Shown here: one piece after another, positions 45,346 through 62,988 of the stretch
Layout of the letters: each line of letters starts with the position of its first letter
Numbering within the stretch: the first letter of the stretch is position 1
NCBI GenBank assembly: GCA_903860135.1
Contig: CAIOPG010000008.1
Coordinates: forward strand, 64,127-128,126
Direction: 5' to 3'
Length of the DNA: 64,000 nt
From: Candidatus Omnitrophota bacterium
GTDB lineage: Bacteria > Omnitrophota > Gorgyraeia > Zapsychrales > Fredricksoniimonadaceae
Notes under the pieces: model-generated
Databases searched by the model: none
Seen by the model: the letters and a program-made list of their open reading frames with translations, nothing else
Told to the model about the DNA's origin: nothing
Made by a program: the position numbers and the translations under genes

Positions 45346-46590
45346 TCAGAAATTTAACATCATCTCTTTTATATCCGCAGACGTTTTAGTCTCTGATAAT
45401 AACACGGAGCGACGGGCCATGTCGGTTCGTGCTGTGTCGACGTGTGCGGCGAGGGCGGCAATAAGTTCCTTGTAGGCCAACACGTCGGAACGGTCTGCCC
45501 TTGCGACCCTGCGGGCATACGTCAGCACTTGTTGCTTGTCACGCACGATCTGCCGGAATTCACTGGACAGGGCGGGATCAGCAAGGCAATAGTTCAGGTA
45601 TTCATCCGCCTGGAGGTAAAGCCCGTCCACTTCGGCAAAAGCCCCAGCATCGGCCAATTTCAGGATCATGATCCCCTGCGGCACATCAGCCAGCAGGTCG
45701 ACCCCGGCCAGGGTGCGCGCCGTAACAGGAACGCCAGACCATGATAATTCTTCCAAGGCTGCCGTTGTCCCCTTACCGGTGGCGCGGAACTTGGCCAGTG
45801 CCTCACGCCAGCGACGCGCCTTGACCTCCCTCGCTTCATTGAATGCCTGAACGAAGGTCTTGACCGGAAACACCTCTTTATAACTATCCTCGGAAAGCAC
45901 CCGATCACCGGTGATCCCAATGACCTGGTCAATGCGTCTTTGATCAAGTCCCAGGCGACCGAGCGCCTGCGCCACCACATGGATGCGCCGCCTCCCGTCG
46001 GACAATGATACGGTGCCGTCTAAACTGGCCAGCGCGTCAAAAGGCCGAACGGATTTCTGGCACACCCGCATGGCCTCGACCAACCCCAAGCCCTGATTGG
46101 CCTTGAGGCACTCCCGCTCCGACTGCCGGCTCAATCGCTCCGCCGGGCCTTCAGCGCCGCGTTCGATCTCGGACAGCCGCGCCGACTCCATGGCAAGCCG
46201 CTCGTAAGCGGCCATGCGGTAATGTTTAAGAACATCAGCGGTCACGGGGCTTGAGTATTCAAGTAATAGCAAAGGATGCCGGAGCGAAACATAACTCTGG
46301 TAATCCTTATCCTGCCGCAGGTTCTTGATTAAATATTTATCGAAGGCCGCGTCAAGGTCGCGCAAGGCACTCGGGCGTGTCATCCCCTCGACCGCAAGCG
46401 CTTTAACCTCGGACATCTTCTCCTGATGCCCGACCTGGTCGATGCCAGGCGTGCGAAAATAATAATCTGCCTGATCCTCTTTCAGGGCTTCGCGGAGCAC
46501 CGTATCCGCCGGACGGACACGTTCAAAAATATCGGCGTGCGCCAACGGCATGGCCGGCAGCATCAGCAAAAACAGGATCAAGCCTCTCAT
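45346..46590 (-). CDS. periplasmic T4SS accessory protein, TraH/PFL_4711-like (tentative); last gene of the T4SS/T4P operon
   Basis: Signal peptide MRGLILFLLMLPAMPLAHA. It follows traU as in F/G-type mating-pair-formation (MPF) systems. No direct motif was confirmed. Confidence 0.4.
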   Translation of the reverse strand: MRGLILFLLMLPAMPLAHADIFERVRPADTVLREALKEDQADYYFRTPGIDQVGHQEKMSEVKALAVEGMTRPSALRDLDAAFDKYLIKNLRQDKDYQSYVSLRHPLLLLEYSSPVTADVLKHYRMAAYERLAMESARLSEIERGAEGPAERLSRQSERECLKANQGLGLVEAMRVCQKSVRPFDALASLDGTVSLSDGRRRIHVVAQALGRLGLDQRRIDQVIGITGDRVLSEDSYKEVFPVKTFVQAFNEAREVKARRWREALAKFRATGKGTTAALEELSWSGVPVTARTLAGVDLLADVPQGIMILKLADAGAFAEVDGLYLQADEYLNYCLADPALSSEFRQIVRDKQQVLTYARRVARADRSDVLAYKELIAALAAHVDTARTDMARRSVLLSETKTSADIKEMMLNF

Positions 46591-46874
46591 TCCGGCAGCC
46601 TCTCCAGGATACGCTGAGCCGCGGCGATCTTCTTGAGACGTTCTTTCTGCCACGCGAGGTATTTCAGCGCTGTTGTTGCATTGGGGTCATCGAGAAAAGC
46701 CTCGACGACCGCTGGCGGCGCGAAACCTCTTTCCACCCATAAAGGATCCGGGAACGAAGGCTTAGCCTGGGCATTTTCTTTAACGGCAAAATATTCGATC
46801 CGGCCGATGCCGTAAAGATCCGCCGCGACCACCGACGGGAAGGCCGCACAGCCCACGATCAAAACAAGCAACAT
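46587..46874 (-). CDS. small periplasmic protein (TrbC/TraW-like position, tentative)
   Basis: Signal peptide MLLVLIVGCAAFPSVVAA; ATGA overlap with the downstream gene. Confidence 0.35.
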   Translation of the reverse strand: MLLVLIVGCAAFPSVVAADLYGIGRIEYFAVKENAQAKPSFPDPLWVERGFAPPAVVEAFLDDPNATTALKYLAWQKERLKKIAAAQRILERLPE

Positions 46875-47722
46875 TCTTTTTTTCGCCAGTAGATCCACAC
46901 AAACCTCCCGTCGCGTGCGTTCACGCCATTGTCCCATAAGGCCGGATCTGCCCCGACAGCCATGCAGCGCTGCTTGACCGGCGACACCATCTGCAAGCGG
47001 TCAAAACGGACATCCGGCCAGAAAAGCACCGGGGCTACAACCTGATGCGGTGTCTGAGGTTTTAGCGCCGCGATATCAACCGCCCTGAAAGCCGCCACCG
47101 CAGAAGCCGTGGCCGGGCTGGCGTGCACCACAAACCCGGTGCGCGGATAAAGCGGCCCCCAGACCCCCAGACATAACCCCGGGAATAAAGCACCGTAACG
47201 CGCACAGACAGGGGCGACCTTAGCGGTCATCTGCGCCAGGGGATGCTTCATCTCGTAACGCGCGCGCCGCCATTCATCCCTGTCCTGTTCACTGATATAA
47301 CTGATCGCACTCCCCAAATCCGGCAGACCTTCACACGGGGCTTCGACCATGAGTGAAAAGGTATCTGAAAAAGGAAACCCGAAAACATGGGCCTCGTTCA
47401 GGTGAAGATTGGTCGTATCGGCTTGTCCCGCGGCCCCGCACGCAGAGGCCTCTGCCCGCGAACCGGCCATAGCGGCCACAACAGACTTATATTCCATGAT
47501 GCCCGATACCCCGGAACGTCGGGTGGTTTCAACCAGCAAGACCGGCTGCCAGTAACGGACCTTGGCTCCTACAAAGGGCGGTGAATTCCTCCGGCAAACG
47601 CCGAGCACCTGGAACCTGACACACGGCCAGTCCGCCTGGGCTGCCAAAGCAACAAGGCTTTCATCGGCTGTCACCGGAACAACAGTAAAAGTCAAAAGGA
47701 TCAGGGCAATGATGGCTTGCAT
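46859..47722 (-). CDS. traU: conjugal transfer protein TraU family
   Basis: Signal peptide and conserved Cys residues. The C-terminus VWIYWRKKECCLF matches the F TraU C-terminus ...MWRKRNCVFL. Confidence 0.7.
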   Translation of the reverse strand: MQAIIALILLTFTVVPVTADESLVALAAQADWPCVRFQVLGVCRRNSPPFVGAKVRYWQPVLLVETTRRSGVSGIMEYKSVVAAMAGSRAEASACGAAGQADTTNLHLNEAHVFGFPFSDTFSLMVEAPCEGLPDLGSAISYISEQDRDEWRRARYEMKHPLAQMTAKVAPVCARYGALFPGLCLGVWGPLYPRTGFVVHASPATASAVAAFRAVDIAALKPQTPHQVVAPVLFWPDVRFDRLQMVSPVKQRCMAVGADPALWDNGVNARDGRFVWIYWRKKECCLF

Positions 47723-47723
47723 A

Positions 47724-48611
47724 TCACGACCTTATGATCCAGTACAACGCCATCGACGGCTGAACGTTGTTGTGCGCAAGGCCGCCCCCGGCTGCTGCTG
47801 TGACGCCCGCGCGCTGGGATGTGAGTAACGGGGAAGAACTCCCATCGTACCGACTGCCCGTCCAAGGTGATTCGTTATAGCCGTGCGTGTGCGCCGGCAT
47901 TTCGGCGATGGTCAACCGATGCGCTTCTTCACCGAAGATCCCGCCCAGCGAACGCCCCCGGGTATCGGTCATGACATTGGCCGCAGAGCCGCCCATATTA
48001 TCAAGCCCCACGACCGTGCGTCCGCGCAAATCAGGCAGATTGAACGTTGTTGACCCGTTGCCTGGACCATAGGTGGTGCCGATCACAGCGAACAATCCCG
48101 TATAATCCGCGCGCGCCACAGCGCGGCCGTCACAGATCAGCCAGCCTGAGGGCAGTGTCCCCGCAGGCCACGGCACGATCGTCCCGGCCGCTGCCAGTGA
48201 TTCCGTCCCCGGCGGTGTTACCTTGAGATTGACCCGTGTTCCGTTGATAACCGGCATCGGCAATAACACGGCTGTCGCTGACGCAAGGTCCGCCGGTAAA
48301 GTCGTGGTCAAATTTAGAAGCGCCCCCGCCTTCTGAACTTCATAAAGGTTCCCAAAAGGATTCCTGGTGCTCCAGGCTGTGTCTAGGAATCCGGCCGTAC
48401 GCAAAGCATCAAGGCTGTCAGGCCATTGTTGTTTTTCGATATAATACGCGCGCGCAACCTCGGCGATCTGGGACATCTCCATCGCCGTCTTTCTGGCCGC
48501 TTCCAAGCGCACCCCGCGGACAAAATCAGGGACGACCGCGCCGGCCAGGATCATGGCCATGGCCAGGGCCAGCGACAATTCGATCAAGGTGAAACTCCGT
48601 CTACGGTGCAT
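47724..48611 (-). CDS. minor pilin with class-III prepilin N-terminus fused to a phage tail-collar (MdpB-like) domain; candidate pilus-tip adhesin
   Basis: RRRSFTLIELSLALAMAMIL prepilin leader/helix. The C-terminus carries the LICDGRAVARADYTGLFAVIGTTYG...FNLPDLRGR...AHTHGY tail-collar signature. Confidence 0.6.
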   Translation of the reverse strand: MHRRRSFTLIELSLALAMAMILAGAVVPDFVRGVRLEAARKTAMEMSQIAEVARAYYIEKQQWPDSLDALRTAGFLDTAWSTRNPFGNLYEVQKAGALLNLTTTLPADLASATAVLLPMPVINGTRVNLKVTPPGTESLAAAGTIVPWPAGTLPSGWLICDGRAVARADYTGLFAVIGTTYGPGNGSTTFNLPDLRGRTVVGLDNMGGSAANVMTDTRGRSLGGIFGEEAHRLTIAEMPAHTHGYNESPWTGSRYDGSSSPLLTSQRAGVTAAAGGGLAHNNVQPSMALYWIIRS

Positions 48612-49510: not shown

Positions 49511-50572
49511 TTACGGTTTCAACACACCAATGTGTGTCAGATTGGCATAAATAGGTTTCAAGAATGCAAGTGCCATGAGCATGACAAAGAACGCCGCTAC
49601 GCCCAGCAAGGCCGGCTGAAGTGTTGCCGCCAGCAGGCCGACGCGCGTTTCGAAGGAACGATAATAAAATTTGAACACACGCTCGCAATATTCATCGTAA
49701 TGCCCGGTTTCCTCGCCGAGCCTGACAGTTTCAACAACCAGCCGCGGGAAATATTTTCCAACAGCCAAAGCAGCTGAAAACGTATGCCCTCCGGCAAGGT
49801 ATTGCCGGCAGTGTTTTAATTCCATCCCGGTTCTGTTGACAGCCGCGGCCGCCGCCTCCGTGAGGGCGGTGTCGAGCGGAATACCACTGCGCAACAGCAC
49901 AAAGATATCGAAAAAACACAAGGCGATCTCGAGGTCCCGGTGCGCCCGGCCAACCAAAGGAAGTTCATTCAAAAAGGCATGCCATTGATCAGGATAGCGT
50001 GAGATCAATCCCATCATGGTCAGCCCCAGGACTGCGGTCCCACCAAACAACCATCCCCCCGCGTGCACGATGAAAGCGCTGAAAGTGATAAGGGCGCGTG
50101 TCAACCAATTATCCAAGGCCTCCGGCGGTAACAGCGGCGCCAGTTGGGGCACAACGGCCTGTGCCATATAAATGAGCACCACCAAAAGAAGCCCGATGAC
50201 GCTTGCCGGATAAATAACCGCCTGAAGGCATTTATCCTTTAAACGCGCGGACAGGTCAAAATGATCCGCCAGAAGCCCCATGACCAAAGGTAGATTCCCG
50301 GCATGCTCGCCAGCCTTAACCGCATTTAAAGCCAAACGAGGGAAAAGGCCTGTTTGCCCCATGGCCTGTGCCAACGGGCGGCCTGCGGCAAGTTCAAGGA
50401 GCATCACCGCACAACCCCGCGACAACCGTGGATCAAGGACAGCTTCTTTGAGTGAACCCAGGGCATGGTTAAGGGCAATGCCCGCCACCAGCATATTGGC
50501 AAGGTCCCTGAAGAAAAACGACAGACGTGCGGCCGGGACAGCCCTTGGCGGTAACAAGAACAACGCTGTCAT
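49511..50572 (-). CDS. type II secretion/type IV pilus platform protein (GspF/PilC/PilR family)
   Basis: 353 aa polytopic membrane protein with duplicated GspF-like cytoplasmic domains; directly downstream of the ATPase. Confidence 0.7.
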   Translation of the reverse strand: MTALFLLPPRAVPAARLSFFFRDLANMLVAGIALNHALGSLKEAVLDPRLSRGCAVMLLELAAGRPLAQAMGQTGLFPRLALNAVKAGEHAGNLPLVMGLLADHFDLSARLKDKCLQAVIYPASVIGLLLVVLIYMAQAVVPQLAPLLPPEALDNWLTRALITFSAFIVHAGGWLFGGTAVLGLTMMGLISRYPDQWHAFLNELPLVGRAHRDLEIALCFFDIFVLLRSGIPLDTALTEAAAAAVNRTGMELKHCRQYLAGGHTFSAALAVGKYFPRLVVETVRLGEETGHYDEYCERVFKFYYRSFETRVGLLAATLQPALLGVAAFFVMLMALAFLKPIYANLTHIGVLKP

Positions 50573-52197
50573 CGCACCACCCGCGCAGCCTCTTCGGGCG
50601 CGATGACCCCTTCGCGCACAAGCCGGCAGGCATCGGCGTGCATGGTGATCACGCCGGGCCTGGCCCTGACTTTCAAGAAGATCTCGTTGACCAGCCCCTG
50701 CTCGATCATGAAACGTATTTCATCATCGATGAACAAGGTTTCCGCCACCACGGTCCGCCCCCGATAACCGTCAAAACACCAGGGGCATCCCCGCGGATCC
50801 GCCCGATGAATGATCTGCCCCGGCCCGTTGACAAAAGCCTGTTCCGCCTCGCCGAGGAGCAGCGGCGTCACAAATTCCTCGATCCGGCAATGCGGACAAA
50901 GCTTGCGCACCAGCCGCTGGGCGACAACACACTTCAGGGTGCTGGCGATATAACTGTTATCCACTCCCAGGTCACGCAGGCGCAAGATGGCACTTACGGC
51001 ATCACGGGTATGCAGTGTTGAAAAGACCTTGTGCCCCGTGATCGCCGCACGCACGGCTTCTTTGGCCGTCTTTTCATCGCGGATCTCGCCGATCAGGATG
51101 ATATCCGGGTCATGCCGCAGAAAGGCCCGTGCCAACTGATGGAAATCATGCCCTTTACGGATATCGACCGGCACCTGGGTCACCAGCGGCAATTTGATCT
51201 CAACCGGATCTTCCGCCGCCACAACCTTGATCCCGACAGCCTTGACATGATTGAGCATGGCATAAAGGCTGGTGGTCTTGCCACAACCGGTAGGCCCGGT
51301 CAAGAGCACGATACCGCCGGGGCTTTTAACCGCACGCTCAATGACACGGCAATGCCCCGGGGCATAACCCAGGCTTTCCAGGGGCACGGCCGAGCGTGTT
51401 TTATCGAGAAGCCTCAGTACGAGCGAGGCCCCGTTGACCGACGGTATGTGCGAAAGCCGGATATCCATCCGGCGGTTGCCGCACACATGATCAAAGCGCG
51501 CGTCATGCAGTTTCATGAAATCGCCCGCGCTGATCTCGGCACGATTAAAGAATATGTTCACGATCCGTGCATGATCCCCGCGCGCGAAAGAACGGTGAAA
51601 GCGCAGGACCCCGTCGAGACGCAAGCGCACTTCGACCGAGTCTCCCGAAGGTTCGATGTGGATATCCGTTGCGCCCAGATCGATCGCTTCTTCCAGAAGG
51701 CTGTCCGCGGCATCCTGGACACCGCGTGTGCCGGCCTCAACAGCCCCTTGCTGCGCCTTCACGAAATGGGCCGCCCCCGCCGCAATGGTATCGCTATTGC
51801 CAATAAAGAACCGCACCTCCGAACCGAACACCGACACCACCTGATCCGTTGCCCGGGTATCATACGGGTCCGCAAGGACAAAAACGGTCCCCGCCGTATC
51901 GGTGCAAGGTAAAACCAGATGCTCCTGCATGAAAGCCCCGCCCAACCGGCTCGCCGCCGCTTGATCGAGGCACGCCGCACCTTCATAAACCGGCCAGCCT
52001 GATTGCTCGGACAATCCGGCCATCAGGTCTTCCTCACGCACAAGCGCATACTGACGCAAGATGTTCCCGAGGCGTTCGCGCCCCGCTGAAGACGCCTGCA
52101 CCCCAAGGCCCAACGCCACATCGCCCGACGTCAGGGCGCCCCGCCTTACCAGCAATGCTCCCAAGGGTTCGGGTTTCATCCGTCGTGCCGTTATCAT
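50569..52197 (-). CDS. type II/IV secretion system ATPase (GspE/PilB/PilQ-R64 family)
   Basis: Walker A LLTGPTGCGKTTSLYAML, a tetracysteine motif (CPHC...CPWC), and a GspE N-domain. Confidence 0.85.
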   Translation of the reverse strand: MITARRMKPEPLGALLVRRGALTSGDVALGLGVQASSAGRERLGNILRQYALVREEDLMAGLSEQSGWPVYEGAACLDQAAASRLGGAFMQEHLVLPCTDTAGTVFVLADPYDTRATDQVVSVFGSEVRFFIGNSDTIAAGAAHFVKAQQGAVEAGTRGVQDAADSLLEEAIDLGATDIHIEPSGDSVEVRLRLDGVLRFHRSFARGDHARIVNIFFNRAEISAGDFMKLHDARFDHVCGNRRMDIRLSHIPSVNGASLVLRLLDKTRSAVPLESLGYAPGHCRVIERAVKSPGGIVLLTGPTGCGKTTSLYAMLNHVKAVGIKVVAAEDPVEIKLPLVTQVPVDIRKGHDFHQLARAFLRHDPDIILIGEIRDEKTAKEAVRAAITGHKVFSTLHTRDAVSAILRLRDLGVDNSYIASTLKCVVAQRLVRKLCPHCRIEEFVTPLLLGEAEQAFVNGPGQIIHRADPRGCPWCFDGYRGRTVVAETLFIDDEIRFMIEQGLVNEIFLKVRARPGVITMHADACRLVREGVIAPEEAARVVR

Positions 52198-52655
52198 CGG
52201 ACCTCCAGCAAGCTTTCATGCCCGTCTTGCGTCACCATGGTGATCTCCGTCGCGGATATTTTCTTGATGATCCTGTCCGCGCAACGATCGCCTTCTTGCC
52301 AACGCTTGAGCACGCCGTCCACATCCACCACCGCTTCCTTGCGCGTCCCGGTGATGGCTATATAACGCACATGAATATTGGGCTCCGTTCCGGCTTGTTC
52401 GTGCGGCTTTCGGGTTTCCCCGCCGCCTGAAAGCCCGGCGAGTTCGAGTGAAACTTTTTTGCGCTCAAGTTCAAGCTTCAAGCGCTCCACATCCAGATGC
52501 AGTAACTGCAGTTCTTCCTCCCTGGCGCGCTCCGTGTCAACACGCCCCCGCATCTTTTCGAGCGTTGCCGTCCCGTCGTCAACAGCCGGTCCGGCCGCCA
52601 GTGCCGCGCTGGCGAACATGAAGATCAAGCAAATGCTCCCCACCTGTTTTTTCAT
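52194..52655 (-). CDS. pilus assembly protein, PilP-like periplasmic beta-domain protein
   Basis: Signal peptide MKKQVGSICLIFMFASAALA, a coiled-coil, and a C-terminal beta domain. Confidence 0.45.
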   Translation of the reverse strand: MKKQVGSICLIFMFASAALAAGPAVDDGTATLEKMRGRVDTERAREEELQLLHLDVERLKLELERKKVSLELAGLSGGGETRKPHEQAGTEPNIHVRYIAITGTRKEAVVDVDGVLKRWQEGDRCADRIIKKISATEITMVTQDGHESLLEVR

Positions 52656-53161
52656 GATGCCCCCTCCTGAAGTCCAACAATAATAACTTCCATCTCGAGC
52701 GTATCTTTTGTTCCCTTTATACGACGGATCACCGCCGTCCCCTTCTCTTCTATCCCTGAGAAAGCCCTCAGCATCGAAAAGAAGGCACTCCGGCTCTGTA
52801 GCCCCGTGCAATGCACATTTAGCGGCAGTTGCTGCACCCCCGCCCAGGGAGAAGCTTCCACCGCGCGGCGCATATCCCCTTGAACCATGCCCGGGACGAT
52901 CACCGTGCAGGCCGTATGCTCCGAGCGCCCGATTACATAAATGTCATTGATAAACCCGGCGTACGCCTCTTTAAAAATATCTTTCGGGGGTGTGCGCTCC
53001 AGCACGGCACAAGCTTTAAGCTCCTCGTTCAGACGGCGTGTCTCGTGCAGCGTTTGGGCCAGTGCCACGTTCTTTCTGGCCGCACGATCCCGAGCGGCAT
53101 AGCCTGTCACTAAGCCCGCAACCAGCAACAGGCTTCCGGCAAAGATCACCAGCAGCCTCAT
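52652..53161 (-). CDS. pilus assembly protein, PilO-like (TM + periplasmic domain)
   Basis: N-terminal TM MRLLVIFAGSLLLVAGLVTGY; ATGA overlaps on both sides. Confidence 0.45.
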   Translation of the reverse strand: MRLLVIFAGSLLLVAGLVTGYAARDRAARKNVALAQTLHETRRLNEELKACAVLERTPPKDIFKEAYAGFINDIYVIGRSEHTACTVIVPGMVQGDMRRAVEASPWAGVQQLPLNVHCTGLQSRSAFFSMLRAFSGIEEKGTAVIRRIKGTKDTLEMEVIIVGLQEGAS

Positions 53162-54233: not shown

Positions 54234-55814
54234 TTAACCTTGGTGCGGGGTCATGAAAATGACCAGTTCTGTCCGCCGGTTTCGGCGAACCTCATAGGAA
54301 AACAATCTGCCCAATACAGGCAGGCGGCACAGGAAAGGCACCCCCTGCTGTTCCTTCCGCTTGTCGCGCGTGATAAGCCCGCCGATGGCTACCGTCTGCC
54401 CGTCTTTCACCCGCACCTGCGTGGTCATGGTCTTGATGGACGTGTCGGGCGCCTCCAGCCGGCTCCCGCCGCCGAGCGTGATCGTGCGGATATCATCAAT
54501 GCTGGTCACGACCGGCGTCACCCCCAGGAACACATCCTCGCCGGCAATACTGCCGACGATCTGGAGCGTCACGCCGCCATGGACTTCATTCAAGGCCGCC
54601 GACGTGATCGTACCCCCGTTCTGTGTGGTTTCCACGTTACTGCTCTCCACATACGATCGGGTTTCCCCGACCTGAATACTGGCCACCGCGTTATTGAGCA
54701 TCATGAGGCGCGGCTGAGACACCACCTCGATCTGCCCGAATGATTCCAGCGCTTTTAAGACGGCCTTGATCCCCGATGCGGTATCACCCGCCCCGCTTCG
54801 GCCGGCGCTGGCCGCCAGGGTCATCACATTGCCGGTGGCCATATTCCCGGAGGCAAAGTTCGTCGACGCCCGCAGGCCTTTTAAACTGCCCCCGGCCATC
54901 AGGGCACCCCAATCGATCCCCAGCTTATGCTCCCTGGAAAGTTCCACCTCGACGACCTTGACATCCACCATGATCTGACGCGCCGCCCGGGCATTGATAT
55001 CCTTGAGAAAAGTTTCCAGCGTTTCCAGCCGTCGCGGCGTATCCGTGACCACGATCACACCGGCCGCCTTGTTAACCGAAACAAGCCCGTCCTTGGAAAC
55101 AAGATTCCTCACACCCGCTTCAACATCACTCCAGTAGGAAAGTGCCTCGGCCTTGTTGTGGATAACAACCCTGGCTCCCACGCGCACATGACTGCGCCCG
55201 GCGGTGCCCGCCCCTGCATTACCTTCCTCGCCGGCACTTGAACTTTCATTGGTCGTGGCTGTATCAAAAGCCTGCGCCACCGGTGGTAGGTCGATGCGGA
55301 AAGACTGCGTATCACGGGCCAGGATAACAAGCTCTCCCCCGTTGACCTTATACCCGTATTCGAGCGGAACCAGGATGGCCCTTAACGCGCGCGCCAGCGG
55401 GGCTTGGCTAATATTCAGCGTCAATTCAGTGTCCACGACACCCGGCCCCAGGACAACCTGCTTTCCGGCGGCTTCGGCGATGATCTTCAAAGCTTCAAAC
55501 AGTTTCACCTGCCCTGCCAGCGTGATCAGCCGCGGTGCTCCGCCTTTAAACACCACGGTGCCGGTGCCCGTTGCAACAGCCTGCACAGGCATGACCAGCG
55601 GCTGAGCCGGTGCCCTCACCCAGGCCCCAGGCCTTAGGATCACCAGCTCATCACGGGCAGGATAATAAACACCGTCAGTGATCCCCGCCGGGACCCGCAC
55701 CTCTGAAACCAGAGGCTCCACCCACTGGTCGCTGGCTTGCGTCGCTGCCGCCCAGCCGCCTGACAGGCACCACAACCATAACCCTGCCCACACAATATTG
55801 GTCCGCATGATCAT
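54234..55814 (-). CDS. secretin (GspD/PilQ/PilN-R64 family)
   Basis: Signal peptide and STN-like N-domain. The secretin core IMVDVKVVEVELS...LGIDW and the C-terminal GVPFLCRLPVLGRLFSYEVRRNRRTELVIFMTP are present. Confidence 0.85.
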   Translation of the reverse strand: MIMRTNIVWAGLWLWCLSGGWAAATQASDQWVEPLVSEVRVPAGITDGVYYPARDELVILRPGAWVRAPAQPLVMPVQAVATGTGTVVFKGGAPRLITLAGQVKLFEALKIIAEAAGKQVVLGPGVVDTELTLNISQAPLARALRAILVPLEYGYKVNGGELVILARDTQSFRIDLPPVAQAFDTATTNESSSAGEEGNAGAGTAGRSHVRVGARVVIHNKAEALSYWSDVEAGVRNLVSKDGLVSVNKAAGVIVVTDTPRRLETLETFLKDINARAARQIMVDVKVVEVELSREHKLGIDWGALMAGGSLKGLRASTNFASGNMATGNVMTLAASAGRSGAGDTASGIKAVLKALESFGQIEVVSQPRLMMLNNAVASIQVGETRSYVESSNVETTQNGGTITSAALNEVHGGVTLQIVGSIAGEDVFLGVTPVVTSIDDIRTITLGGGSRLEAPDTSIKTMTTQVRVKDGQTVAIGGLITRDKRKEQQGVPFLCRLPVLGRLFSYEVRRNRRTELVIFMTPHQG

Positions 55815-55843: not shown

Positions 55844-58291
55844 TCAGCGCACACCGCCGGGATATTTTGCCGCACAAACCCTGAGGGCTTCCAATAGGTC
55901 ACCCCCGGCCTTTTCCTTTTCCGCATCTAATAGCGCATTGTCGCGCGGCTCTGACGTGGCCGCCCAATAAAGCAGAGGGTCAGGCACCAGCCGGATAACC
56001 CCTGTCGAAGAAGGCGTCATCACCAAAGCCTCGGCATACCGCCCTTTGACCGTGCGGACCGACCGCAGCAAACCTGCCGCCTCGTCGGCGAGAGACAATT
56101 CTCTTTTTAAATGTTCGATCAGCGCAACTTCCTGCTTCAAAAAGATCTTGTTGGCTGTATTGGCCAGGATCGCCAGCCCGCTCTTTTGTTGCAGGAAGTC
56201 AGCAACCTCCTGGGTAACCGCCACTGCCGCACAGCGGTATTTGCGGAATGTCTTGAAGGCATTGGCAATAAAATCACCGGTGCTGGCGAGCTTTAATAAC
56301 TGCCACGCTTCATCGATCAGCATGAACTTCCTCTTGCCGCGGATGCGCGGATCACCCACAAACTGCGTCACAAAGAACATGATATTAAGGAGCACCACCA
56401 GCTGAAGGTCCGGGTAAGCACTCAGATTCGCCAGTTCAAACACCGTGAAACGGCTGTTCACTGTAAACTGATTCTGCCCGTCGAAGAATTTCCCGTACGG
56501 CCCTTTCCGGGTGAACGGTGCCAGCCTGAGCGCCAAACGAGGCCCCATTGCACTCACATCCTCGAGCGTCGCGTTGTTCAACACGCCGGCGACATCGGTC
56601 AATGTCACCTCACGGCCTTTCACCGTCCTGTACGCTTCAAGCACTGCCTGCTGGAGAAAGCCTTTCTCCTCGCGCGTCAGGCGGTCGCGTTCATCGCCGC
56701 CCGAAGCCATGAAACCCAGCACTTCGACAAGGAAAGCCAGATTTTCGCTGTCAGGAGCACACAGGAACGGATTGATCGTCAGCGGCGCCCGCAGGTCAAA
56801 ATCAAGGTACTGCCCGCCGAGGATGGCGCAGGTCTTGCGGTAAGAATGCCCTTTGTCGAGCACAAAGAAATGCGCGCCCAAACGGTAATTCTGATAAATA
56901 AAATCATTGATCAGGAATGACTTCCCGGCCCCCGAAGCCCCGATCACCAGCCCGTGAGGATTTGTTTCCGAATCAAAAAGATCCAGCCATACCGGCTCGC
57001 CCCGGCGGTTCATGTAAAGCCCCGCCGGTGTGGCTGTACCGCGGCAGGCGCCGTAAAAGGGCAGCATATCCGCGAAATTATCTGAGAGAATGCGGCGTTC
57101 CCGGCGCACAAAACACTCGTTGCGGTGGTCGAAATTTAGCGGCAGGCATGTCAGGTAGATCGACGGAGCAATGATCTCTTCTTTCAAGCCTTCGGCCCCC
57201 ATCCGGTGCAGAGCGGCCAGCAGTGTGTCGCACACCCCTTCAAGGGCAGGCAAAGCCTCGCCCCACACCACGAGATGCCAGCGCGCCTGCACGATCACCT
57301 TGCCGCTCTTAAAGGTCTGCGTGATAAGCCCGCTCAGTTCCTCTTTCTTTTGCACCGCCTCCTCGCTCACATCACCCATCGACGACGTCCGCTGCATAAA
57401 CGCCAGGGCCTTCTGAAATTTGAGCCGCGACAGGGCCGACTGCTGATCGGGCACCGTGAAATTGACAACGACCATCATGTCCCTGTGACTGTCACATAAG
57501 CCTTCGCGGGTTGATAACATCCCCGCCCATGTCGCCGGCGGTAATTCCTTCAGGCTCAACACCCGGGTGTGATAACCGTCAAAGATAAAGCCGTTGCCAT
57601 GCACGTCCGGTGCCCCGTACAAAACCTGTTCTCTCAAAAAGTCTTGTCCCAGCCGTGGCGGCGGAATTCTGAGCGCACGGCGAGGGTTCAACAGCCGGTA
57701 AACAAGCGCACACAAACCCGCTCCGTCGATTTCAACCCACGGGATCCGCATGGCCTGCAGTTGGCTTTCGATGACGGCACAAAATCGAAGAAAATCACCG
57801 CGCACTTTGTCTTGCGTCCGGGCATCGTGCGCCGCGCCTTGAGACACCGGAAAAGACCGTACAGTCAAAAACAGCCGCATCCGCCTGGGGAACAGTTCTT
57901 CCCCGGCCTGCCGGAAAAACCCTTCCCGGCTGTCTTCCATATGCTGCACTTTCCCGTCGATGATCATCGCTGTGGCCTTATCCGCTCCGGCCGGCGTCAT
58001 GGCCTGGTACGGACCGGTCAGCGGCGTAATATCGCTGTCCGATACGAGGATGGCCTGCGCGCTGATCCCCGGTAACATACGCCCGACAAGCCCCCCGAGC
58101 ATATGCACAAATTCATCCAGCTGTGCCGCCCCTACAGCCTCGGATTCATAAAGGGATAGTTCCCACACGCGCCCGATACTGCCGTCCACATGAAGAAATA
58201 TCCCGCCAGCGTATTCCGCGTACGGCAAATGATCAACGAGCGATTTCCCTTCATCGAACAAAGCCTGTATCCCTGACACGGTCAACATCAC
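55844..58291 (-). CDS. traC: conjugative transfer ATPase TraC/VirB4 family
   Basis: 815 aa with Walker A VIGASGAGKSFLINDFI and a Walker B-like FMLIDEAW. Confidence 0.8.
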   Translation of the reverse strand: MMLTVSGIQALFDEGKSLVDHLPYAEYAGGIFLHVDGSIGRVWELSLYESEAVGAAQLDEFVHMLGGLVGRMLPGISAQAILVSDSDITPLTGPYQAMTPAGADKATAMIIDGKVQHMEDSREGFFRQAGEELFPRRMRLFLTVRSFPVSQGAAHDARTQDKVRGDFLRFCAVIESQLQAMRIPWVEIDGAGLCALVYRLLNPRRALRIPPPRLGQDFLREQVLYGAPDVHGNGFIFDGYHTRVLSLKELPPATWAGMLSTREGLCDSHRDMMVVVNFTVPDQQSALSRLKFQKALAFMQRTSSMGDVSEEAVQKKEELSGLITQTFKSGKVIVQARWHLVVWGEALPALEGVCDTLLAALHRMGAEGLKEEIIAPSIYLTCLPLNFDHRNECFVRRERRILSDNFADMLPFYGACRGTATPAGLYMNRRGEPVWLDLFDSETNPHGLVIGASGAGKSFLINDFIYQNYRLGAHFFVLDKGHSYRKTCAILGGQYLDFDLRAPLTINPFLCAPDSENLAFLVEVLGFMASGGDERDRLTREEKGFLQQAVLEAYRTVKGREVTLTDVAGVLNNATLEDVSAMGPRLALRLAPFTRKGPYGKFFDGQNQFTVNSRFTVFELANLSAYPDLQLVVLLNIMFFVTQFVGDPRIRGKRKFMLIDEAWQLLKLASTGDFIANAFKTFRKYRCAAVAVTQEVADFLQQKSGLAILANTANKIFLKQEVALIEHLKRELSLADEAAGLLRSVRTVKGRYAEALVMTPSSTGVIRLVPDPLLYWAATSEPRDNALLDAEKEKAGGDLLEALRVCAAKYPGGVR

Positions 58292-58680
58292 GGCTCCTTT
58301 ACCGGTAAGACCGGAACGATCGCTCGTCCGTCGGTGCTTTCCCCCGCAGGCCGCTCGATATACCAGTGCGGCTCATCGACCATGAGAAACGTCCAATGCC
58401 CGGCGACCATGGCGTCGCGGCCGTGGCCGCTCACATGCGCCGGGATCCATACTTTCCGGATGCGCGGGGGTTCATAGATCGGCCAATACGGTCGCACCAC
58501 GCCAGCCTCAGGCAAAAGCTCCACCCTGCCCGTAGCACCACCCTCGGCAGTGCCGCACGAATGGTGATAGATCTGTGCCAGCGTACGCGGCGCCTCCCCT
58601 TGCGCCGGGACTGCCTGACGGCCCGCGCAACCGCTAATCAGCGTAACGCACAGGCATAACAGCACTCTTCTTGAGCCCAT
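58288..58680 (-). CDS. T4SS lipoprotein (TraV/TIGR03751-like position)
   Basis: Lipobox LCLCVTLISGC. It lies immediately upstream of traC, as TraV does in F-like systems. Confidence 0.5.
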   Translation of the reverse strand: MGSRRVLLCLCVTLISGCAGRQAVPAQGEAPRTLAQIYHHSCGTAEGGATGRVELLPEAGVVRPYWPIYEPPRIRKVWIPAHVSGHGRDAMVAGHWTFLMVDEPHWYIERPAGESTDGRAIVPVLPVKEP

Positions 58681-59806
58681 AAACCGCCGTCCCTTCGAGT
58701 ACAATGAAATAAACGCCGACCCCGGCCTCAACCTTGACCGCCGGGACAATATTCCCCAGCTGATCCTCGTAATACTTGGACATTTGCGCCGCGCTCTGCG
58801 CCAACCCCTGAAACCCGGCATTCTTTGTGCGGCTCCCGGTCACATTCCTTGTCATATGCCCGTTATCGCCCATGACCGTTGTTGTCTGGGCGTCGGCCAT
58901 GGCCTGCGCAGCCCCGCCGGTAAATCCGGTCATGAACGACATCGCCAACTGCCGGCCGGCGTTATAAACGACCTCGCCTTTCAAGCCCAACTGGCCGGAA
59001 ACATCTGTCAGATACCCGATATTCCCTTTGTGCTCAAAAGTCTCACCTTGCGGGAACACCGCCGACACCGTCGTGATCTGGACAAGCGCCCGTTCGCTCA
59101 CAAGATCCCCCGACGCCTTGCCTGCCGCCAGGGCACCTTCGAGCGGTATGCGCGACCCGTTGGGGCCATAAAAAGCTTCCTTAAGGCGGATCAAGACCGG
59201 CAAGGGATTGGCATTGCCTGACGGCGCATAAACCCCCGTCAGCAATGTCCCGCTCACAAAACTGCCGGCGGGCAAATACACCCGGTCTCTGTCGTTCTCG
59301 CGCGCAACAGGGGCCGCGATATTGATCACATCCATCTGATACCGCCGCATATCCGGCTGTTGCACCATAGCCCCGGCGGGGGATGACACCTCCGCCTTGT
59401 TGCTCACCGCCTCGGCCATGCGCCCGGCAAGGCTCGCGAAACTCTCGGACAACCGCCCCTGGCCCTTGGACAGCTCACTCACTTTCCCGGCAAGATCGTC
59501 GATCCGCCCCTGCAAAAGCTGATCTTTCTCTGCGGCAGAAAAATATTGCGCCTCAAGCCGCTGCACATACGCCTTCTTGTCAATGTCCTCCCCCAGGAAA
59601 TACCCGCCCTCGTCCTTCTTCACCTCTTGCGGCGACGCCAATGGCTTCACCGGGCCATCGCCGGGCACTGGTTCTTTGGGCAGAAACAGCCAGCACGCCG
59701 CGATCAGCAAGCCTCCGGCCGCGCACAGTGCCGTCAAGCGCCCGCGCGTGTCCAGTGCCTGAAATTTTTCCTGCCACGACCGGATCAACGCCTGAATATT
59801 ATTCAT
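58634..59806 (-). CDS. traB: TraB/VirB10 family protein
   Basis: N-terminal TM, a coiled-coil, and a C-terminal beta-barrel region (RVYLPAGSFVSGTLLTGV). Confidence 0.6.
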   Translation of the reverse strand: MNNIQALIRSWQEKFQALDTRGRLTALCAAGGLLIAACWLFLPKEPVPGDGPVKPLASPQEVKKDEGGYFLGEDIDKKAYVQRLEAQYFSAAEKDQLLQGRIDDLAGKVSELSKGQGRLSESFASLAGRMAEAVSNKAEVSSPAGAMVQQPDMRRYQMDVINIAAPVARENDRDRVYLPAGSFVSGTLLTGVYAPSGNANPLPVLIRLKEAFYGPNGSRIPLEGALAAGKASGDLVSERALVQITTVSAVFPQGETFEHKGNIGYLTDVSGQLGLKGEVVYNAGRQLAMSFMTGFTGGAAQAMADAQTTTVMGDNGHMTRNVTGSRTKNAGFQGLAQSAAQMSKYYEDQLGNIVPAVKVEAGVGVYFIVLEGTAVYGLKKSAVMPVRYAD

Positions 59807-60468
59807 CGCCGGACCACCATATAAATCCGCCCTTTCATCCGCGGGCCAAGCGTATCTTCCTCTGCCGCCACCGCCAGCAGGCCGGGATACGTTATCCGCT
59901 GCAACGGCAGTATGACCGGCGCATCCGTCACATTCTCAGCGGCGAGCACATACCCGGCGACCATGGGCCATTCATCGCTCCATAAAAGAACCAGCCTGAG
60001 CTGGGCATCCTCAAAAACCACCTGCCCGCCGTTGTGCCGCACAACCCCCTCCGGCTGACGCTCCTGCATCAAGGCCCGCATGGCCGCCATGACCGGATCC
60101 GTTCCCGCCGCTGGCCCTGCCGGCACGCGGCAATCCGCGATCGTCACCTTGTCATCGACCCCCTCACCAAAAACATACCTGACCCGGTGCGAACGCCCAT
60201 TGCTATCGAGGATGGTGATGCCCGCCGGCGCGGCTGTAAGCGGCGTCAGAAAAAGATGCCCCGCCGCGTGCTCCACCTTCACCGTTGCCGGATCACCCCA
60301 GCGCACAAGATCGGATATCCCATCCTCCATATAAATATCGACCATCTTGCCGACCTCCACCCGCACCGCTGTATCAGCCCCGGCGCAGATACGTTTTTCC
60401 GCCGCCGCGCCGCCCACCCCGCCGAGCAGGATCAGCCCTGCCACCAGACAATGCTCAACTCGGATCAT
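59803..60468 (-). CDS. traK: TraK/VirB9-like protein
   Basis: Signal peptide MIRVEHCLVAGLILLGGVGGAAA; placed between the TraE-like and TraB-like genes. The start was moved. Confidence 0.5.
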   Translation of the reverse strand: MIRVEHCLVAGLILLGGVGGAAAEKRICAGADTAVRVEVGKMVDIYMEDGISDLVRWGDPATVKVEHAAGHLFLTPLTAAPAGITILDSNGRSHRVRYVFGEGVDDKVTIADCRVPAGPAAGTDPVMAAMRALMQERQPEGVVRHNGGQVVFEDAQLRLVLLWSDEWPMVAGYVLAAENVTDAPVILPLQRITYPGLLAVAAEEDTLGPRMKGRIYMVVRR

Positions 60469-61078
60469 GGCTGGCCTTCTCTTTCCTGACATCCTCGACC
60501 GCAAGCCCGTAAGGATTGCGCGTCGTTGGCGTGATCCGCCGGACAGCCACCGTGAAACGCACGGCTTCACCTGACATTTCTTCCTTGCCCATGTAGATCC
60601 GGCGCTCGCCCTCAAAAACAACCGTAAAACCCACCGCTTGCGCCTCACACTGCGGCACGCCTTTCAGCGTGAATACCGACGACAATCTGTCGCGGGCGAT
60701 CTTTTCAAGCTCGGCCTTCAACCCCGCCTGGATCCTGGCCGTGAACCCGGGCATGACCAGGGTGAGCGCCCGCTGATAAACGCTTTCGGCGGTGTCGGGG
60801 GTATAATTCATCCAGTCCAGGATCCAGGCCGCCGTGAAACTGCTCACCGACGGCAAAGGCACCTGTCCCGGGTAGGATAGTCCCGCCGCGGGCATGGCCG
60901 GAATATAATGAATAGGCTTGGGGCGCAGGGCTGTCATCACCAGGGCCGCCGCCAGCACCACACTGACCAACCCCAAAACAAAAACAGCCCCTGCCAGCAC
61001 CGCGCGCTGTTGTTCCGCCTGGGCGTAGCGTTCAAAATACAGGGAACTTTTGGATCTCACCGCCTTCTCCTGACTCAT
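60455..61078 (-). CDS. traE: TraE/VirB8-like bitopic protein
   Basis: N-terminal TM VLAGAVFVLGLVSVVLAAALVM followed by a periplasmic domain; F-type gene order. Confidence 0.5.
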   Translation of the reverse strand: MSQEKAVRSKSSLYFERYAQAEQQRAVLAGAVFVLGLVSVVLAAALVMTALRPKPIHYIPAMPAAGLSYPGQVPLPSVSSFTAAWILDWMNYTPDTAESVYQRALTLVMPGFTARIQAGLKAELEKIARDRLSSVFTLKGVPQCEAQAVGFTVVFEGERRIYMGKEEMSGEAVRFTVAVRRITPTTRNPYGLAVEDVRKEKASHDPS

Positions 61079-61368
61079 GCCGCCTCCTTAAGGAATGCCC
61101 CGTAACGTTCTCCGTGCGCAGGTACCGGCGGCAAAAGTCCAGGCAGTGGTACGCCTGCCCGGTACAAGGCATGCGCCACATACCCTTCTGGCTTGCCCCG
61201 CTTGAAGGCGACGAGCGCCGGCCAGACCGCAAAGATCAGGATCAACGGGATCGCCGGAGAGATCAGGATCGCCGGCACCCCGAACAAGAGCATCAGCACC
61301 GCGATATCCTCCCCTTCGAGCCCGAGGATCAGCAAAGGCTTGTCAATGGTCTTGGGGCAATGCCGCAT
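61075..61368 (-). CDS. traL: TraL/VirB3-like small membrane protein
   Basis: 97 aa; LILGLEGEDIAVLMLLFGV resembles the TraL family. Confidence 0.5.
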   Translation of the reverse strand: MRHCPKTIDKPLLILGLEGEDIAVLMLLFGVPAILISPAIPLILIFAVWPALVAFKRGKPEGYVAHALYRAGVPLPGLLPPVPAHGERYGAFLKEAA

Positions 61369-61371
61369 CTG

Positions 61372-61686
61372 TCACCGCCCGAACACGTTTAAGATCTGCG
61401 GTAAAAAAACCAGGGCCAGCAAGGCGATCACACACCCCACCGCCGTGCCATAATCCCGGTTGATGATCTTCCATATACCGACGAGAAGCAGTACCAGCGC
61501 GATGATCTTGGCCACCGGCCCGGTCATGACCGTCACGATGAATTTCGACAGGTTGTCAAACTGTTGCTTTGTTTCATCTTCGATCCCGGATGCCTGGGCC
61601 CATGCCCGGGTGACCACCCCCATCACAACCACCGCCCCCGCACTCACGCGTAACAAGATCCGCTCCCCGACTTTGATATACCTCAT
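61372..61686 (-). CDS. conjugative pilin (TraA/VirB2/PFL_4701-like)
   Basis: About 104 aa: a signal-like segment plus two hydrophobic helices (KIIALVLLLVGIW, VGCVIALLALVFL). The track ORF is over-extended upstream in a Gly-rich out-of-context frame. Confidence 0.45.
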   Translation of the reverse strand: MRYIKVGERILLRVSAGAVVVMGVVTRAWAQASGIEDETKQQFDNLSKFIVTVMTGPVAKIIALVLLLVGIWKIINRDYGTAVGCVIALLALVFLPQILNVFGR

Positions 61687-62906
61687 GCCTGCCCCCTTGT
61701 TGAATGGCATCTGTTGAGAACCAAAAGAAATACCCCCAGCCCTGCCAGCGGCAACACCAAGACCGCGGTCGCCGTTATCACATTCACCACCGGCGACAAC
61801 CACAGCGCCGTACTCCCCGGCATCGCCGGCAACAGGAACAATACCCCCGCCGCCTTGGCCGCCAAGACCCACAAGACTGTCCAGCCTTTCACCGCCAGCA
61901 ACAACCCCAGCCATAACGCCAGTGCCCCCGCCGCACGGCATAAGAGTGCCGCCACCATAACCACAGGCAAGGCCACCCATAAACACAGCAGGCACAATCC
62001 TTGCGCCGCAGGATAAAACCGCACGATCACCCAGGCAAAGGCATCGAGCACGCCCGGTGCCCCCGCTTCAACCGCGACCTGCTGGGGTGCCCCATAAGCA
62101 AAGCGCGTATACGCTTGCGGTCTCAACCGCATTTCCTGTTCGAGCAAGGCCTGCACCACCGCATCCTTGTCGATCACCGCGCCGTAAAACCGCTCGAACA
62201 TCCGGTCAAAGATCTTTTCCTGGTTCACACAACCATACAACGCATCACGTAACACGCCCCAGCGTGCCCGGGCGTCTTCCTTATACACAGCCACCACCCG
62301 CTTATCCCCCGGCCACAGGCCCACGGTCTCAACATCCAATCCGCGCACGGCTTTCCAGTAATCCTGCTGATAGAACCTGGCCGCGGCATCGCTCAACGCA
62401 CGATCCGTGATCCCCCGCCCGATGATCGCGCGCGTGATCAGCGACACCTTGACCGCCAGGAACGGACTCGCCAGATACCCCCGCGCACCGCCGCCCTTCC
62501 CCATCCGGTCAACGACCGCCGCCACGCCCGTGACCAGCGCGTCAACGCCCCGGCTGACCGCAAAGAAAACCGGATTAACCACCACCGCGTCATATCCACC
62601 CTTCTTTATCAGTTCCGCCGCGCTCAAGCCCTGATACCCGTTGCGTTCCATGGCTGACACAGGCGCCACGACCGTTGCCCGCGGCTGAACCCCCAGGAAC
62701 CACACCCCAAAGAAGGCAACCACAAACACCATAACCCCCTTAAAATTTCCCCTCTCTAACCCCCTGGCAAGCCCGAGGATAAAACCCAGCGCAAAAATAA
62801 CTTTCCCGCCGAGCGTCTCTACAAAAATAAACCGCATCAACGCCTGCGCCTCGTGCAAGCCCATCATTTCAAATGCCGCATCGACCGGTGTGATCCCCAA
62901 GATCAT
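61683..62906 (-). CDS. polytopic membrane protein, first gene of T4SS/T4P operon (VirB6/TraG-N-like?, tentative)
   Basis: Multiple TM helices throughout. A GGAGAGAGGGG SD lies before the ATG at 62906. Confidence 0.4.
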   Translation of the reverse strand: MILGITPVDAAFEMMGLHEAQALMRFIFVETLGGKVIFALGFILGLARGLERGNFKGVMVFVVAFFGVWFLGVQPRATVVAPVSAMERNGYQGLSAAELIKKGGYDAVVVNPVFFAVSRGVDALVTGVAAVVDRMGKGGGARGYLASPFLAVKVSLITRAIIGRGITDRALSDAAARFYQQDYWKAVRGLDVETVGLWPGDKRVVAVYKEDARARWGVLRDALYGCVNQEKIFDRMFERFYGAVIDKDAVVQALLEQEMRLRPQAYTRFAYGAPQQVAVEAGAPGVLDAFAWVIVRFYPAAQGLCLLCLWVALPVVMVAALLCRAAGALALWLGLLLAVKGWTVLWVLAAKAAGVLFLLPAMPGSTALWLSPVVNVITATAVLVLPLAGLGVFLLVLNRCHSTRGQA

Positions 62907-62943
62907 AACCCCTCTCTCCACGTGTACGCCCATCAACCAGAGA

Positions 62944-62988
62944 TTTGATTTATAATCAAAATATAAACCATCGTTGCACGAAAAGCAA
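62944..62988 (-). promoter_or_regulatory. promoter of T4SS/T4P operon with an overlapping palindromic operator
   Basis: The minus strand reads TTGCTT-N17-TATATT (-35 at 62988..62983, -10 at 62965..62960). A perfect palindrome TTTGATT-tat-AATCAAA (62944..62960) spans the -10/+1 region. Confidence 0.5.

Follow-up and report, generated by a model that had tools for sequence, protein, structure and literature searches.

An F-like conjugation gene set interleaved with type IV filament genes in a conserved chromosomal operon of Omnitrophota, a candidate apparatus for cell contact and transfer

Why are genes of a conjugation-type secretion system and genes of a type IV filament interleaved in one operon on the chromosome of an Omnitrophota bacterium? 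The question is raised by a DNA stretch of 64,000 nt (the window, to which all positions refer unless a relative is named) that forms the end of a 128-kb metagenome contig (ERZ27313599 k141_359998, 128,154 bp). An initial annotation of the window had described a single co-directional operon with recurrent ATGA overlaps, in which F-like type IV secretion system (T4SS) genes enclose type IV filament genes. Both points were borne out. The operon consists of 20 consecutive open reading frames (ORFs), g01 to g20, all on the minus strand between 45346 and 62906, with junctions of -47 to +29 nt and 4-nt ATGA-type overlaps at nine of them, and the interleaving is supported by Pfam and NCBIfam matches and by the same gene order in relatives. 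We consider that the operon may encode a domesticated, contact-dependent apparatus for attachment and transfer, that is, a chromosomal composite machine of the cell envelope, and give this reading a probability of about one half.

Gene families were assigned with Pfam and NCBIfam profiles, each match being judged against the cut-off of its own profile, and blastp and hhalign were used as a supplement with the F plasmid (NC_002483) and an IncI plasmid (LT985289) as references. Judged by these matches and by gene position, the predicted T4SS core is a divergent F-like set of a TraG_N/VirB6-like protein, a VirB2-like pilin, TraL, TraE, a TraK-like protein, TraB, a TraV-like protein, TraC/VirB4 and TraU. 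These genes, and the two that close the operon, are listed here.

61683..62906, minus strand: g01, polytopic membrane protein of 407 aa, TraG_N-like (VirB6 analog) by homology to a Candidatus Velamenicoccus archaeovorus protein
61372..61686, minus strand: g02, TraA/VirB2-like T4SS pilin of 104 aa; signal peptide, two hydrophobic helices, conserved position
61075..61368, minus strand: g03, TraL (VirB3-like); PF07178 31.4 bits, above cut-off; TIGR02762 24.9 bits
60455..61078, minus strand: g04, TraE (VirB8-like); PF05309 51.4 bits; DUF2895 32.7 bits
59803..60468, minus strand: g05, TraK-like protein (VirB9 analog), weak; PF23536 TraK_C 23.7 bits (cut-off 28.5)
58634..59806, minus strand: g06, TraB (VirB10-like); PF03743 TrbI 84.4 bits; blastp 1.6e-14 to F TraB
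58288..58680, minus strand: g07, TraV-like lipoprotein, weak; PF09676 TraV 18.9 bits (cut-off 21); lipobox LISGC; conserved position
55844..58288, minus strand: g08, TraC (VirB4 ATPase); Walker A GASGAGKS, Walker B LIDEAW
46859..47722, minus strand: g18, TraU; PF06834 104 bits; conserved Cys and Trp pattern
46587..46874, minus strand: g19, exported protein of 95 aa with a possible lipobox IVGC; no Pfam or NCBIfam family match
45346..46590, minus strand: g20, secreted helical protein of 414 aa; small family with no named members, seen in these clusters only

Within the order traA-L-E-K-B-V-C, as it was first read, TraL, TraE, TraB and TraC have profile support, while TraA, TraK and TraV were placed by position with matches below threshold. 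For g02 these were PF04956 TrbC/VirB2 (24.4 bits) and NF041281 TraA (26 bits), both under their cut-offs. The hhalign alignment of g05 with F TraK was co-linear and not significant, a profile set against a single F protein being an insensitive comparison; the place of g05 between TraE and TraB is conserved. The first gene, described at the outset as a membrane protein, could be refined to a TraG_N homolog. It has no direct match in Pfam or NCBIfam, but blastp aligned it (5e-34) with a 457-aa protein of V. archaeovorus that carries PF07916 TraG_N, and it opens the cluster in most relatives. TraC (g08) scored above the Pfam cut-offs for P-loop_TraG (144.5 bits) and TraC_F_IV (71 bits); its best family was TIGR02746 (341 bits, under the equivalog cut-off of 567), vs. 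112 bits for TIGR03744 (the PFL_4706 model) of integrative conjugative elements (ICEs), and it is 25-31% identical to the best plasmid TraC proteins. The best scores of TraC, TraE, TraB and TraL were all obtained with F-type models, the top NCBIfam match of g06 being F-type TraB. TraU scored higher with TIGR03756 of the ICE/MPF_G type (59 bits) than with F TraU (31 bits). All Tra protein scores lie under the NCBIfam equivalog cut-offs.

No Pfam, NCBIfam or blastp match to TraW, TrbC, TraN, TraF or TraH was obtained among the cluster proteins, and the TraG C-domain was not found. The earlier assignment of the last gene, g20, as TraH-like had to be rejected, its hhalign probability against TraH being 0.3%. 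By eye, the g19 consensus FLDDPxxENAxxYLxWQxxRL is similar to sequence near the N-terminus of F TraF (ILYPGVDNFVKYFRLQNYW); hhalign gave no significance. Compared with the F-type mating-pair formation system (MPF_F), the cluster shares the order from traA to traC, TraU and the TraG_N-type protein. It differs in having nine type IV filament genes between traC and traU, in that TraD, TraI and the TraG C-domain were not found and a motif in g19 is at most a lead to TraF, and in its chromosomal location with no mobility genes seen.

The filament machine encoded by the nine intervening genes is, as predicted from family matches, MSHA- and type II secretion system (T2SS)-like, with a secretin, three putative assembly proteins, a GspE/PilB-class ATPase, a GspF platform and major, minor and PilV-like pilins.

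54234..55814, minus strand: g09, secretin; PF00263 131 bits; N-terminal domain fused
53158..54231, minus strand: g10, protein of 357 aa; one hydrophobic transmembrane-like stretch at about residues 205-230
52652..53161, minus strand: g11, protein of 169 aa; N-terminal transmembrane segment, conserved position; no Pfam or NCBIfam family match
52194..52655, minus strand: g12, secreted protein of 153 aa; signal peptide; no Pfam or NCBIfam family match
50569..52197, minus strand: g13, GspE/PilB-class assembly ATPase; T2SSE 310 bits; GspE 342 bits; PilB 328 bits
49511..50572, minus strand: g14, GspF/PilC platform protein; T2SSF 138 bits in two stretches; GspF 176 bits
49050..49496, minus strand: g15, major prepilin; leader MKRNARYNRG/FSLMELA, cleavage at G/F; PilS_N 25.6 bits; N_methyl 23.3 bits
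48601..49050, minus strand: g16, minor pilin-like protein; weak GspH match only; pilin-like N-terminus
47724..48611, minus strand: g17, PilV-like pilin, putative tip adhesin; Collar PF07484 88 bits; N_methyl 21.4 bits

Profile searches confirmed the secretin, the GspE-type ATPase, the GspF-type platform, the prepilin and the adhesin-like pilin of the initial annotation, as well as its TraU. The three "assembly proteins" g10-g12 were not confirmed: they sit where PilMNOP, MshIJK or GspCLM alignment proteins would be expected and match no family or PDB sequence. For g10, which had no match in Pfam, NCBIfam or a PDB profile search, a GspL/PilMN-like role may be inferred from the layout of its transmembrane stretch and its position. 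Identity with PilO found no support in hhalign against IncI1 PilO or in the PDB profile search, and a single-sequence AlphaFold2 model was discarded at a pLDDT of 35. The gene comes next after the secretin in nearly all loci that reach past the secretin; tblastn did not detect it in two of them (L019 and L027), and in L008 it was found by blastp only.

The likeness of the module to the R64-type type IVb pilus, which had been proposed, held in part. The order of secretin, assembly proteins, ATPase, platform, PilS-like and PilV-like pilins is that of R64 and TP114, in which a type IV pilus is likewise tied to a T4SS (PMC9045228), and the prepilin matches PilS_N and aligns with IncI1 PilS (blastp 2e-5). 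The sequences, in contrast, are nearer MSHA, T2SS and type IVa proteins. The secretin scored 222 bits with MshL, against 147 with GspD, 144 with PilQ and 142 with PilN-IVB, and the ATPase, which carries the CPHC..CPWC zinc motif of GspE/PilB, is 39.6% identical to a plasmid GspE vs. 29% to IncI1 PilQ; taken together, the cluster is nearer MshL, GspE and GspF than PilN, PilQ and PilR. The leader of g15, with 10 residues, Phe at +1 and Glu at +5, is short and of the IVa type. PilL, PilM, PilT, PilU, rci and the shufflon of R64 have no counterparts in the cluster. Moreover, the pil genes of R64 stand apart as a block of their own, with an MPF_I (Dot/Icm-like) T4SS next to them, whereas the filament genes here lie inside an F-like operon. 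Scores of the filament genes are under the NCBIfam equivalog cut-offs, and the MSHA/T2SS/type IVa likeness is one of family level only. An ordinary MSHA cluster was rejected, the outgroup MSHA loci (L033-L041) having no Tra genes. At the N-terminus of the ATPase, a match to MshEN passes the Pfam cut-off with 25 bits and an MshE-type motif for binding of cyclic di-GMP is found below cut-off, which hints at control by this messenger.

The C-terminal part of the PilV-like pilin g17 is a Collar domain as found in phage tail fibres, accompanied by a weak match to T4 Gp10_C. Collar was detected in six of 11 g17 homologs; an alignment of all 11 shows its signature residues, among them an AHTHGY (HxH) motif characteristic of the tips of phage fibres, to be invariant. 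R64/TP114 PilV and g17 are alike in carrying a C-terminal receptor-binding part; they differ in that the Collar domain of g17 is fixed and TraU follows directly downstream, with no rci-like gene. A pilin bearing a phage-type receptor-binding domain is unusual in itself.

To what extent the gene order is conserved was determined with tblastn and blastp on 29 species-representative genome loci and several metagenome loci (cited here by L numbers). Dozens of Omnitrophota genomes contain the same interleaved cluster. Its complete order is repeated in L005, L010, L014, L016, L019, L022, L032, L049 and L072 and, with insertions, in the closed genome of V. archaeovorus (L042), the proteins of relatives being 20-75% identical to those of the window. 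About 48 proteins are closely homologous to the secretin, beyond which similarity falls abruptly to the level of ordinary MshL proteins, and for TraC more than 120 close homolog clusters were counted; the window's host is itself an Omnitrophota bacterium, and all named close homologs belong to Omnitrophota metagenome-assembled genomes (MAGs) or to V. archaeovorus. Identities of TraC, secretin, ATPase and TraU drop in parallel from relative to relative, which indicates that the two halves have long been linked. Homologous loci labelled by their submitters as 'Candidatus Elulimicrobium', 'uncultured Planctomycetales' or 'Candidatus Portnoybacteria' (e.g., L013, P0344) encode proteins that cluster tightly with those of Omnitrophota, and the labels are therefore probably labelling issues and not a sign of spread to other phyla. 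One MAG, nCal2bin1 (L029 and L030), holds two secretin-g10 loci of different subtypes and a third secretin gene (L029, 19220-20857), representing either paralogous systems in one genome or a mixed bin. The secretin N-domain, fused in the window, is a separate ORF of about 150 aa in many relatives.

The control region of the operon is conserved as well. Upstream of g01, a 219-aa ORF is followed by two terminator-like hairpins and an AT-rich region that contains the predicted promoter.

62944..63013, minus strand: regulatory region, sigma70-like promoter bracketed by two palindromes; read from sequence and by inverted-repeat search
62988-62983, minus strand: -35 element TTGCTT, with a 17-nt spacer to the -10 element
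62965-62960, minus strand: -10 element TATATT, read from sequence
63013-62995 and 62960-62944: two TTTGAT-N5-ATCAAA palindromes, putative operators on either side of the promoter

A promoter with an operator had been placed at 62944-62988, to which the second palindrome was added here. The promoter/palindrome block is kept in the non-coding upstream DNA of L004 and L005, whose proteins are only about 56-87% identical to those of the window, and partly in L006 and L007. This conservation in non-coding DNA supports the predicted promoter and operators. A simple promoter scan did not list the promoter because its -35 element matches the consensus at only three of six positions. The preceding 219-aa ORF (63125-63784, minus strand) has no Pfam match. 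Over its last ~49 residues it shares 92% identity with the C-terminal end of an ORF of at least 617 aa upstream of the homologous cluster in L005 (12-1865), and a further match is a 748-aa ORF that lies downstream of g12 in L008 (4377-6623); the 219-aa ORF looks like a recurrent neighbor of the cluster with a conserved C-terminal motif.

Is the operon then a resident of the chromosome or a passenger? The rest of the window is core chromosome (pur genes, glyA, hflX, miaA, clpB, dnaK, dnaJ, grpE, the gene for the CCA-adding enzyme, Sua5 and accD). The composition is host-like, as had been stated, with a third-position GC content (GC3) of 0.68 in the cluster vs. 0.65 in housekeeping genes and a codon-frequency correlation of r = 0.90 between the two. 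No coupling protein, relaxase, integrase or prepilin peptidase was found in a Pfam scan of the larger ORFs of the window, and the window holds no tRNA; in this, too, the first reading proved right. A plasmid megablast gave no match to the whole cluster. No A24 peptidase or SLT gene was seen in the cluster or the window. In relatives the flanks are mostly housekeeping or regulatory genes that vary by lineage (PGI, peptidase U32, ABC transporter, TatC, heme biosynthesis, histidine kinases, FeoAB, FadL). Downstream, a 298-nt gap separates g20 from a HemN-like radical-SAM gene, and the order g20, HemN-like gene, 340-aa gene is kept in the nearest relatives L049 and L050, a synteny that we read as vertical inheritance. 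The 1-3 kb upstream of the cluster in close relatives hold no transfer genes. The idea of a domesticated system, voiced in the initial annotation, is strengthened by the conservation of the cluster across Omnitrophota among housekeeping genes and by the L049/L050 synteny.

The V. archaeovorus LiM cluster (CP019384, 602-625 kb) is a homologous system with the same interleaving, in which the secretin N-domain is a separate ORF and the genes have been annotated one by one (at NCBI, 'putative conjugative transfer protein TraC' and 'type IV secretory protein VirD4'). It differs from the window in what it carries in addition. The order shared by V. archaeovorus and a large clade of its relatives is TraG_N, a small ORF, a protein of ~223-257 aa, a VirD4-type type IV coupling protein (T4CP, 754 aa), pilin and TraL, followed by a 63-aa Imm_superinfect-like protein, in some genomes by toxin-antitoxin (TA), HEPN and NYN cargo, and then by TraE-K-B-V-C, secretin and the rest. 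The T4CP is 66-94% identical over more than 120 clusters, which is higher than TraC. Its presence inside these clusters means that absence of a coupling protein is not an inherent trait of the machine family. The 254-aa protein of V. archaeovorus gave a near-threshold match to Replic_Relax (E 4e-5, 24.2 bits vs. a cut-off of 25.3) that was absent in both homologs tested, and no canonical relaxase was found in any locus examined. All these additional genes are absent from the window. Neither the window nor any locus of its clade has a T4CP or Replic_Relax-like gene between g01 and g02, and tblastn with the V. archaeovorus T4CP as query detected no coupling protein anywhere in them. In L042 (5813-6807) and L043 (12895-17741), the conserved Imm_superinfect-like gene precedes a variable island (NYN, HEPN, ParE toxin, DUF5677) that ends before TraE. 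In three metagenome contigs (L060, L068 and L078), a minus-strand operon combines a TraD-like T4CP with T2SSE and T2SSF and is divergent from an operon whose TraU is 35% identical to that of the window; in L068, a pilin and TraL follow at a distance of 10 kb.

How such an apparatus might work can be outlined from the gene content. The single promoter, flanked by its two conserved palindromic operators, would turn the whole gene set on. The filament would then present the Collar-domain pilin, which may bind a glycan on the surface of a target (host or prey) cell by analogy with PilV of R64/TP114, where the PilV adhesins of the T4SS-associated pilus select the partner cell (PMC9045228). With the two envelopes apposed, the T4SS core could serve as the conduit. 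In the V. archaeovorus clade, the VirD4-type coupling protein encoded in the cluster would recruit the substrate, be it a nucleoprotein or a protein, while in the clade of the window the coupling protein may be encoded elsewhere or the T4SS half may work without one. Such a course is compatible with the proposed life style: Omnitrophota have been proposed to be mostly predators or parasites (PMC10066038), and for V. archaeovorus, an epibiotic predator, the contacts point to molecules being transferred into the prey (PMC13153191).

Several observations weigh against a domesticated attachment and transfer apparatus. The source contig ends only 1.1 kb upstream of the operon, and the 64 kb of the window show no coupling protein, relaxase, VirB11, retraction ATPase or prepilin peptidase. 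The assignments of pilin, TraK-like and TraV-like proteins are weak, consisting of sub-threshold matches together with position, size and signal peptide or lipobox, and six proteins (g10, g11, g12, g16, g19 and g20) have no family assignment. Vertical inheritance at a stable chromosomal site is argued from synteny and composition, not from tree congruence. Finally, the TA/HEPN/NYN cargo and the weak Replic_Relax match make true conjugation possible in the V. archaeovorus clade.

The way the cluster breaks bears on whether its two halves form one machine. In five species (L006, L007, L008, L009 and L015) the cluster ends after g12, the secretins of L006-L009 being ~60% identical to that of the window. 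In L011, L012, L013, L026 and L029, the genes from g01 to TraC are present with secretin, g10, g11 and g20, and no ATPase, platform, pilins or TraU are found nearby. L016 and L025 have no TraA-to-TraV block upstream, and TraC still stands next to the secretin, as it does directly upstream of it in nearly all loci that are long enough (the exceptions are L020, with a 7-kb insertion, and L024). Conversely, L053 and L064 hold pilins, the PilV-like protein, TraU and g19 together without the T4SS core, L053 having in addition a g12-like gene, ATPase and platform, and L064 having g20. The breaks thus do not fall at the boundary between T4SS and pilus, the secretin staying with TraC and TraU with the pilins, which suggests, as evidence of genetic linkage only, that the interleaving is functional and not accidental. 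The split pattern hints at one integrated machine. In its strongest form, a single chimeric trans-envelope machine would use the secretin and g10-g12 as the outer-membrane conduit of the VirB4/TraB core, TraU, g19 and g20 would serve the filament and its phage-like tip adhesin, and ultra-small cells would dock on a much larger host or prey cell to inject or extract macromolecules. It is supported by the loci with TraC, secretin and g10 together without ATPase, pilins and TraU, and by the separate loci in which TraU goes with pilins and ATPase; on balance we hold this specific architecture to be unlikely. If true, contact-dependent systems would gain a new class that is neither a T4SS nor a type IV pilus (T4P)/T2SS machine.

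The operon may instead be an ICE or its decayed remnant, which would move DNA between Omnitrophota cells, the pilus stabilizing mating pairs as it does for R64 or PAPI-1, and whose copy in the window would have lost T4CP, relaxase and integrase or have them off the contig. Consistent with this, the V. archaeovorus cluster contains the T4CP and the weak Replic_Relax protein, the TA, HEPN, NYN and Imm_superinfect cargo sits inside clusters of its clade, the V. archaeovorus cluster is preceded by HTH_17 and ParB_N genes, a Prim-Pol/PriCT gene is found 4.7 kb downstream in L012, and the source contig of the window stops right upstream of the operon. The stop lies ~30 bp past window position 64000 in all recorded copies, which indicates that something there breaks assembly; a perfect 60-bp tandem repeat (two copies, 63832-63953) is present in the AT-rich DNA at the very end. 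Mobile islands of the PAPI-1/ICEclc family (MPF_G, pil2) offer the closest parallel of this kind in combining an F-related T4SS with a type IV pilus, in that g18 (TraU) has TIGR03756 as best match and in that g04 (TraE) matches DUF2895/TIGR03746. Unlike the present cluster, they come with integrase, relaxase, T4CP and integration at tRNA genes, none of which was found here, and their pilus genes form a separate operon. Against an ICE, neither an integrase nor a canonical relaxase nor a tRNA occurs in the flanks examined around more than 30 loci, the flanking genes are of housekeeping type with downstream synteny in close relatives, whose upstream DNA lacks transfer genes, the composition is that of the host, and the Replic_Relax match was not reproduced in the two homologs. 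We regard this explanation as improbable.

Alternatively, two mechanistically independent machines could merely be co-transcribed, an F-like T4SS/pilus and a T2SS or type IV pilus for adhesion, motility or enzyme secretion. Each half does contain a near-complete, recognizable core set, the F-type core has outer-membrane complex proteins of its own (TraK-like, TraV-like and TraB), and R64, TP114 and PAPI-1 provide the precedent of T4SS and T4P as separate partner machines (PMC9045228). This would leave the breakage pattern to be explained, in which TraC is accompanied by secretin, g10 and g11 in L006, L007, L009, L011-L013, L015, L026 and L029, TraC stays beside the secretin in L016 and L025 without the TraA-to-TraV block, and TraU and g19 stay with the pilins in L053 and L064, in the former also with the ATPase. 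We find full independence of the two halves quite unlikely.

Import is the last alternative to be weighed. A secretin with a type IV filament is the usual route of DNA uptake, and the Helicobacter ComB T4SS imports DNA without VirD4. Work by Kizina and colleagues in 2022 reportedly found that the prey loses rRNA and DNA, and is said to have proposed nucleic-acid phosphorolysis for V. archaeovorus. A competence-like hybrid (filament and secretin with a ComB-like T4SS) that acquires DNA, RNA or further macromolecules from prey, either lysed or attached, would agree with the missing T4CP match in the window, but it is a purely analogical idea that appears very unlikely, as the cluster showed no ComEA, ComEC or DprA, a retraction ATPase is missing and the cluster of the sister clade encodes an export-type coupling protein.

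Two further observations concern the window outside the operon. A 1260-aa ORF (6239-10021, minus strand) without a Pfam match lies in its lowest-GC stretch (42-49% vs. about 55%). The purC-purB-purL-purQ-purM-purD-purE neighborhood includes a 971-aa fusion in which PurS forms the N-terminal part ahead of PurL (35223-38138, minus strand).

The finding is not new in kind, because the association of T4SS and type IV pilus is already known. Compared with the searchable literature, which did not extend to the text of the V. archaeovorus genome paper, three features are new: filament genes intercalated in an F-like tra operon, conservation of the cluster in many genomes across the phylum at chromosomal and apparently non-mobile sites, and a phage-type Collar pilin as putative adhesin. 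Genomic surveys of Omnitrophota have drawn attention to Tad pili, type IVa pili and giant proteins and not to this cluster, and the text and supplements of the Omnitrophota genomics paper make no mention of Tra, T4SS, secretin or conjugation (PMC10066038). Two preprints from 2026 and the giant-gene preprint describe other Omnitrophota loci. Of these, the T2SS/Tad-like locus next to giant genes (West-Roberts et al. 2023 preprint) resembles the present cluster in being phylum-wide and in its gspD/E/F-like genes and class III signal peptides. It differs in having rcpC and a Rotamase_2 peptidyl-prolyl isomerase, both absent from our cluster, and no Tra genes are mentioned for it; identity of the two loci was rejected because of this difference in gene content.

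For the biology of the phylum, the cluster bears on the question of how its members attach to and exploit other cells. Omnitrophota are abundant, ultra-small, uncultured and thought to be predators or parasites. A phylum-wide, chromosomally fixed fusion of T4SS and pilus with a phage-type tip is a concrete candidate for their contact and transfer machinery, and the cluster is present in V. archaeovorus, the one enrichment culture available. If the reading as a domesticated attachment and transfer apparatus is true, a conjugation-type machine would have been domesticated and genetically merged with a type IV filament, which would bear on how secretion systems exchange parts.

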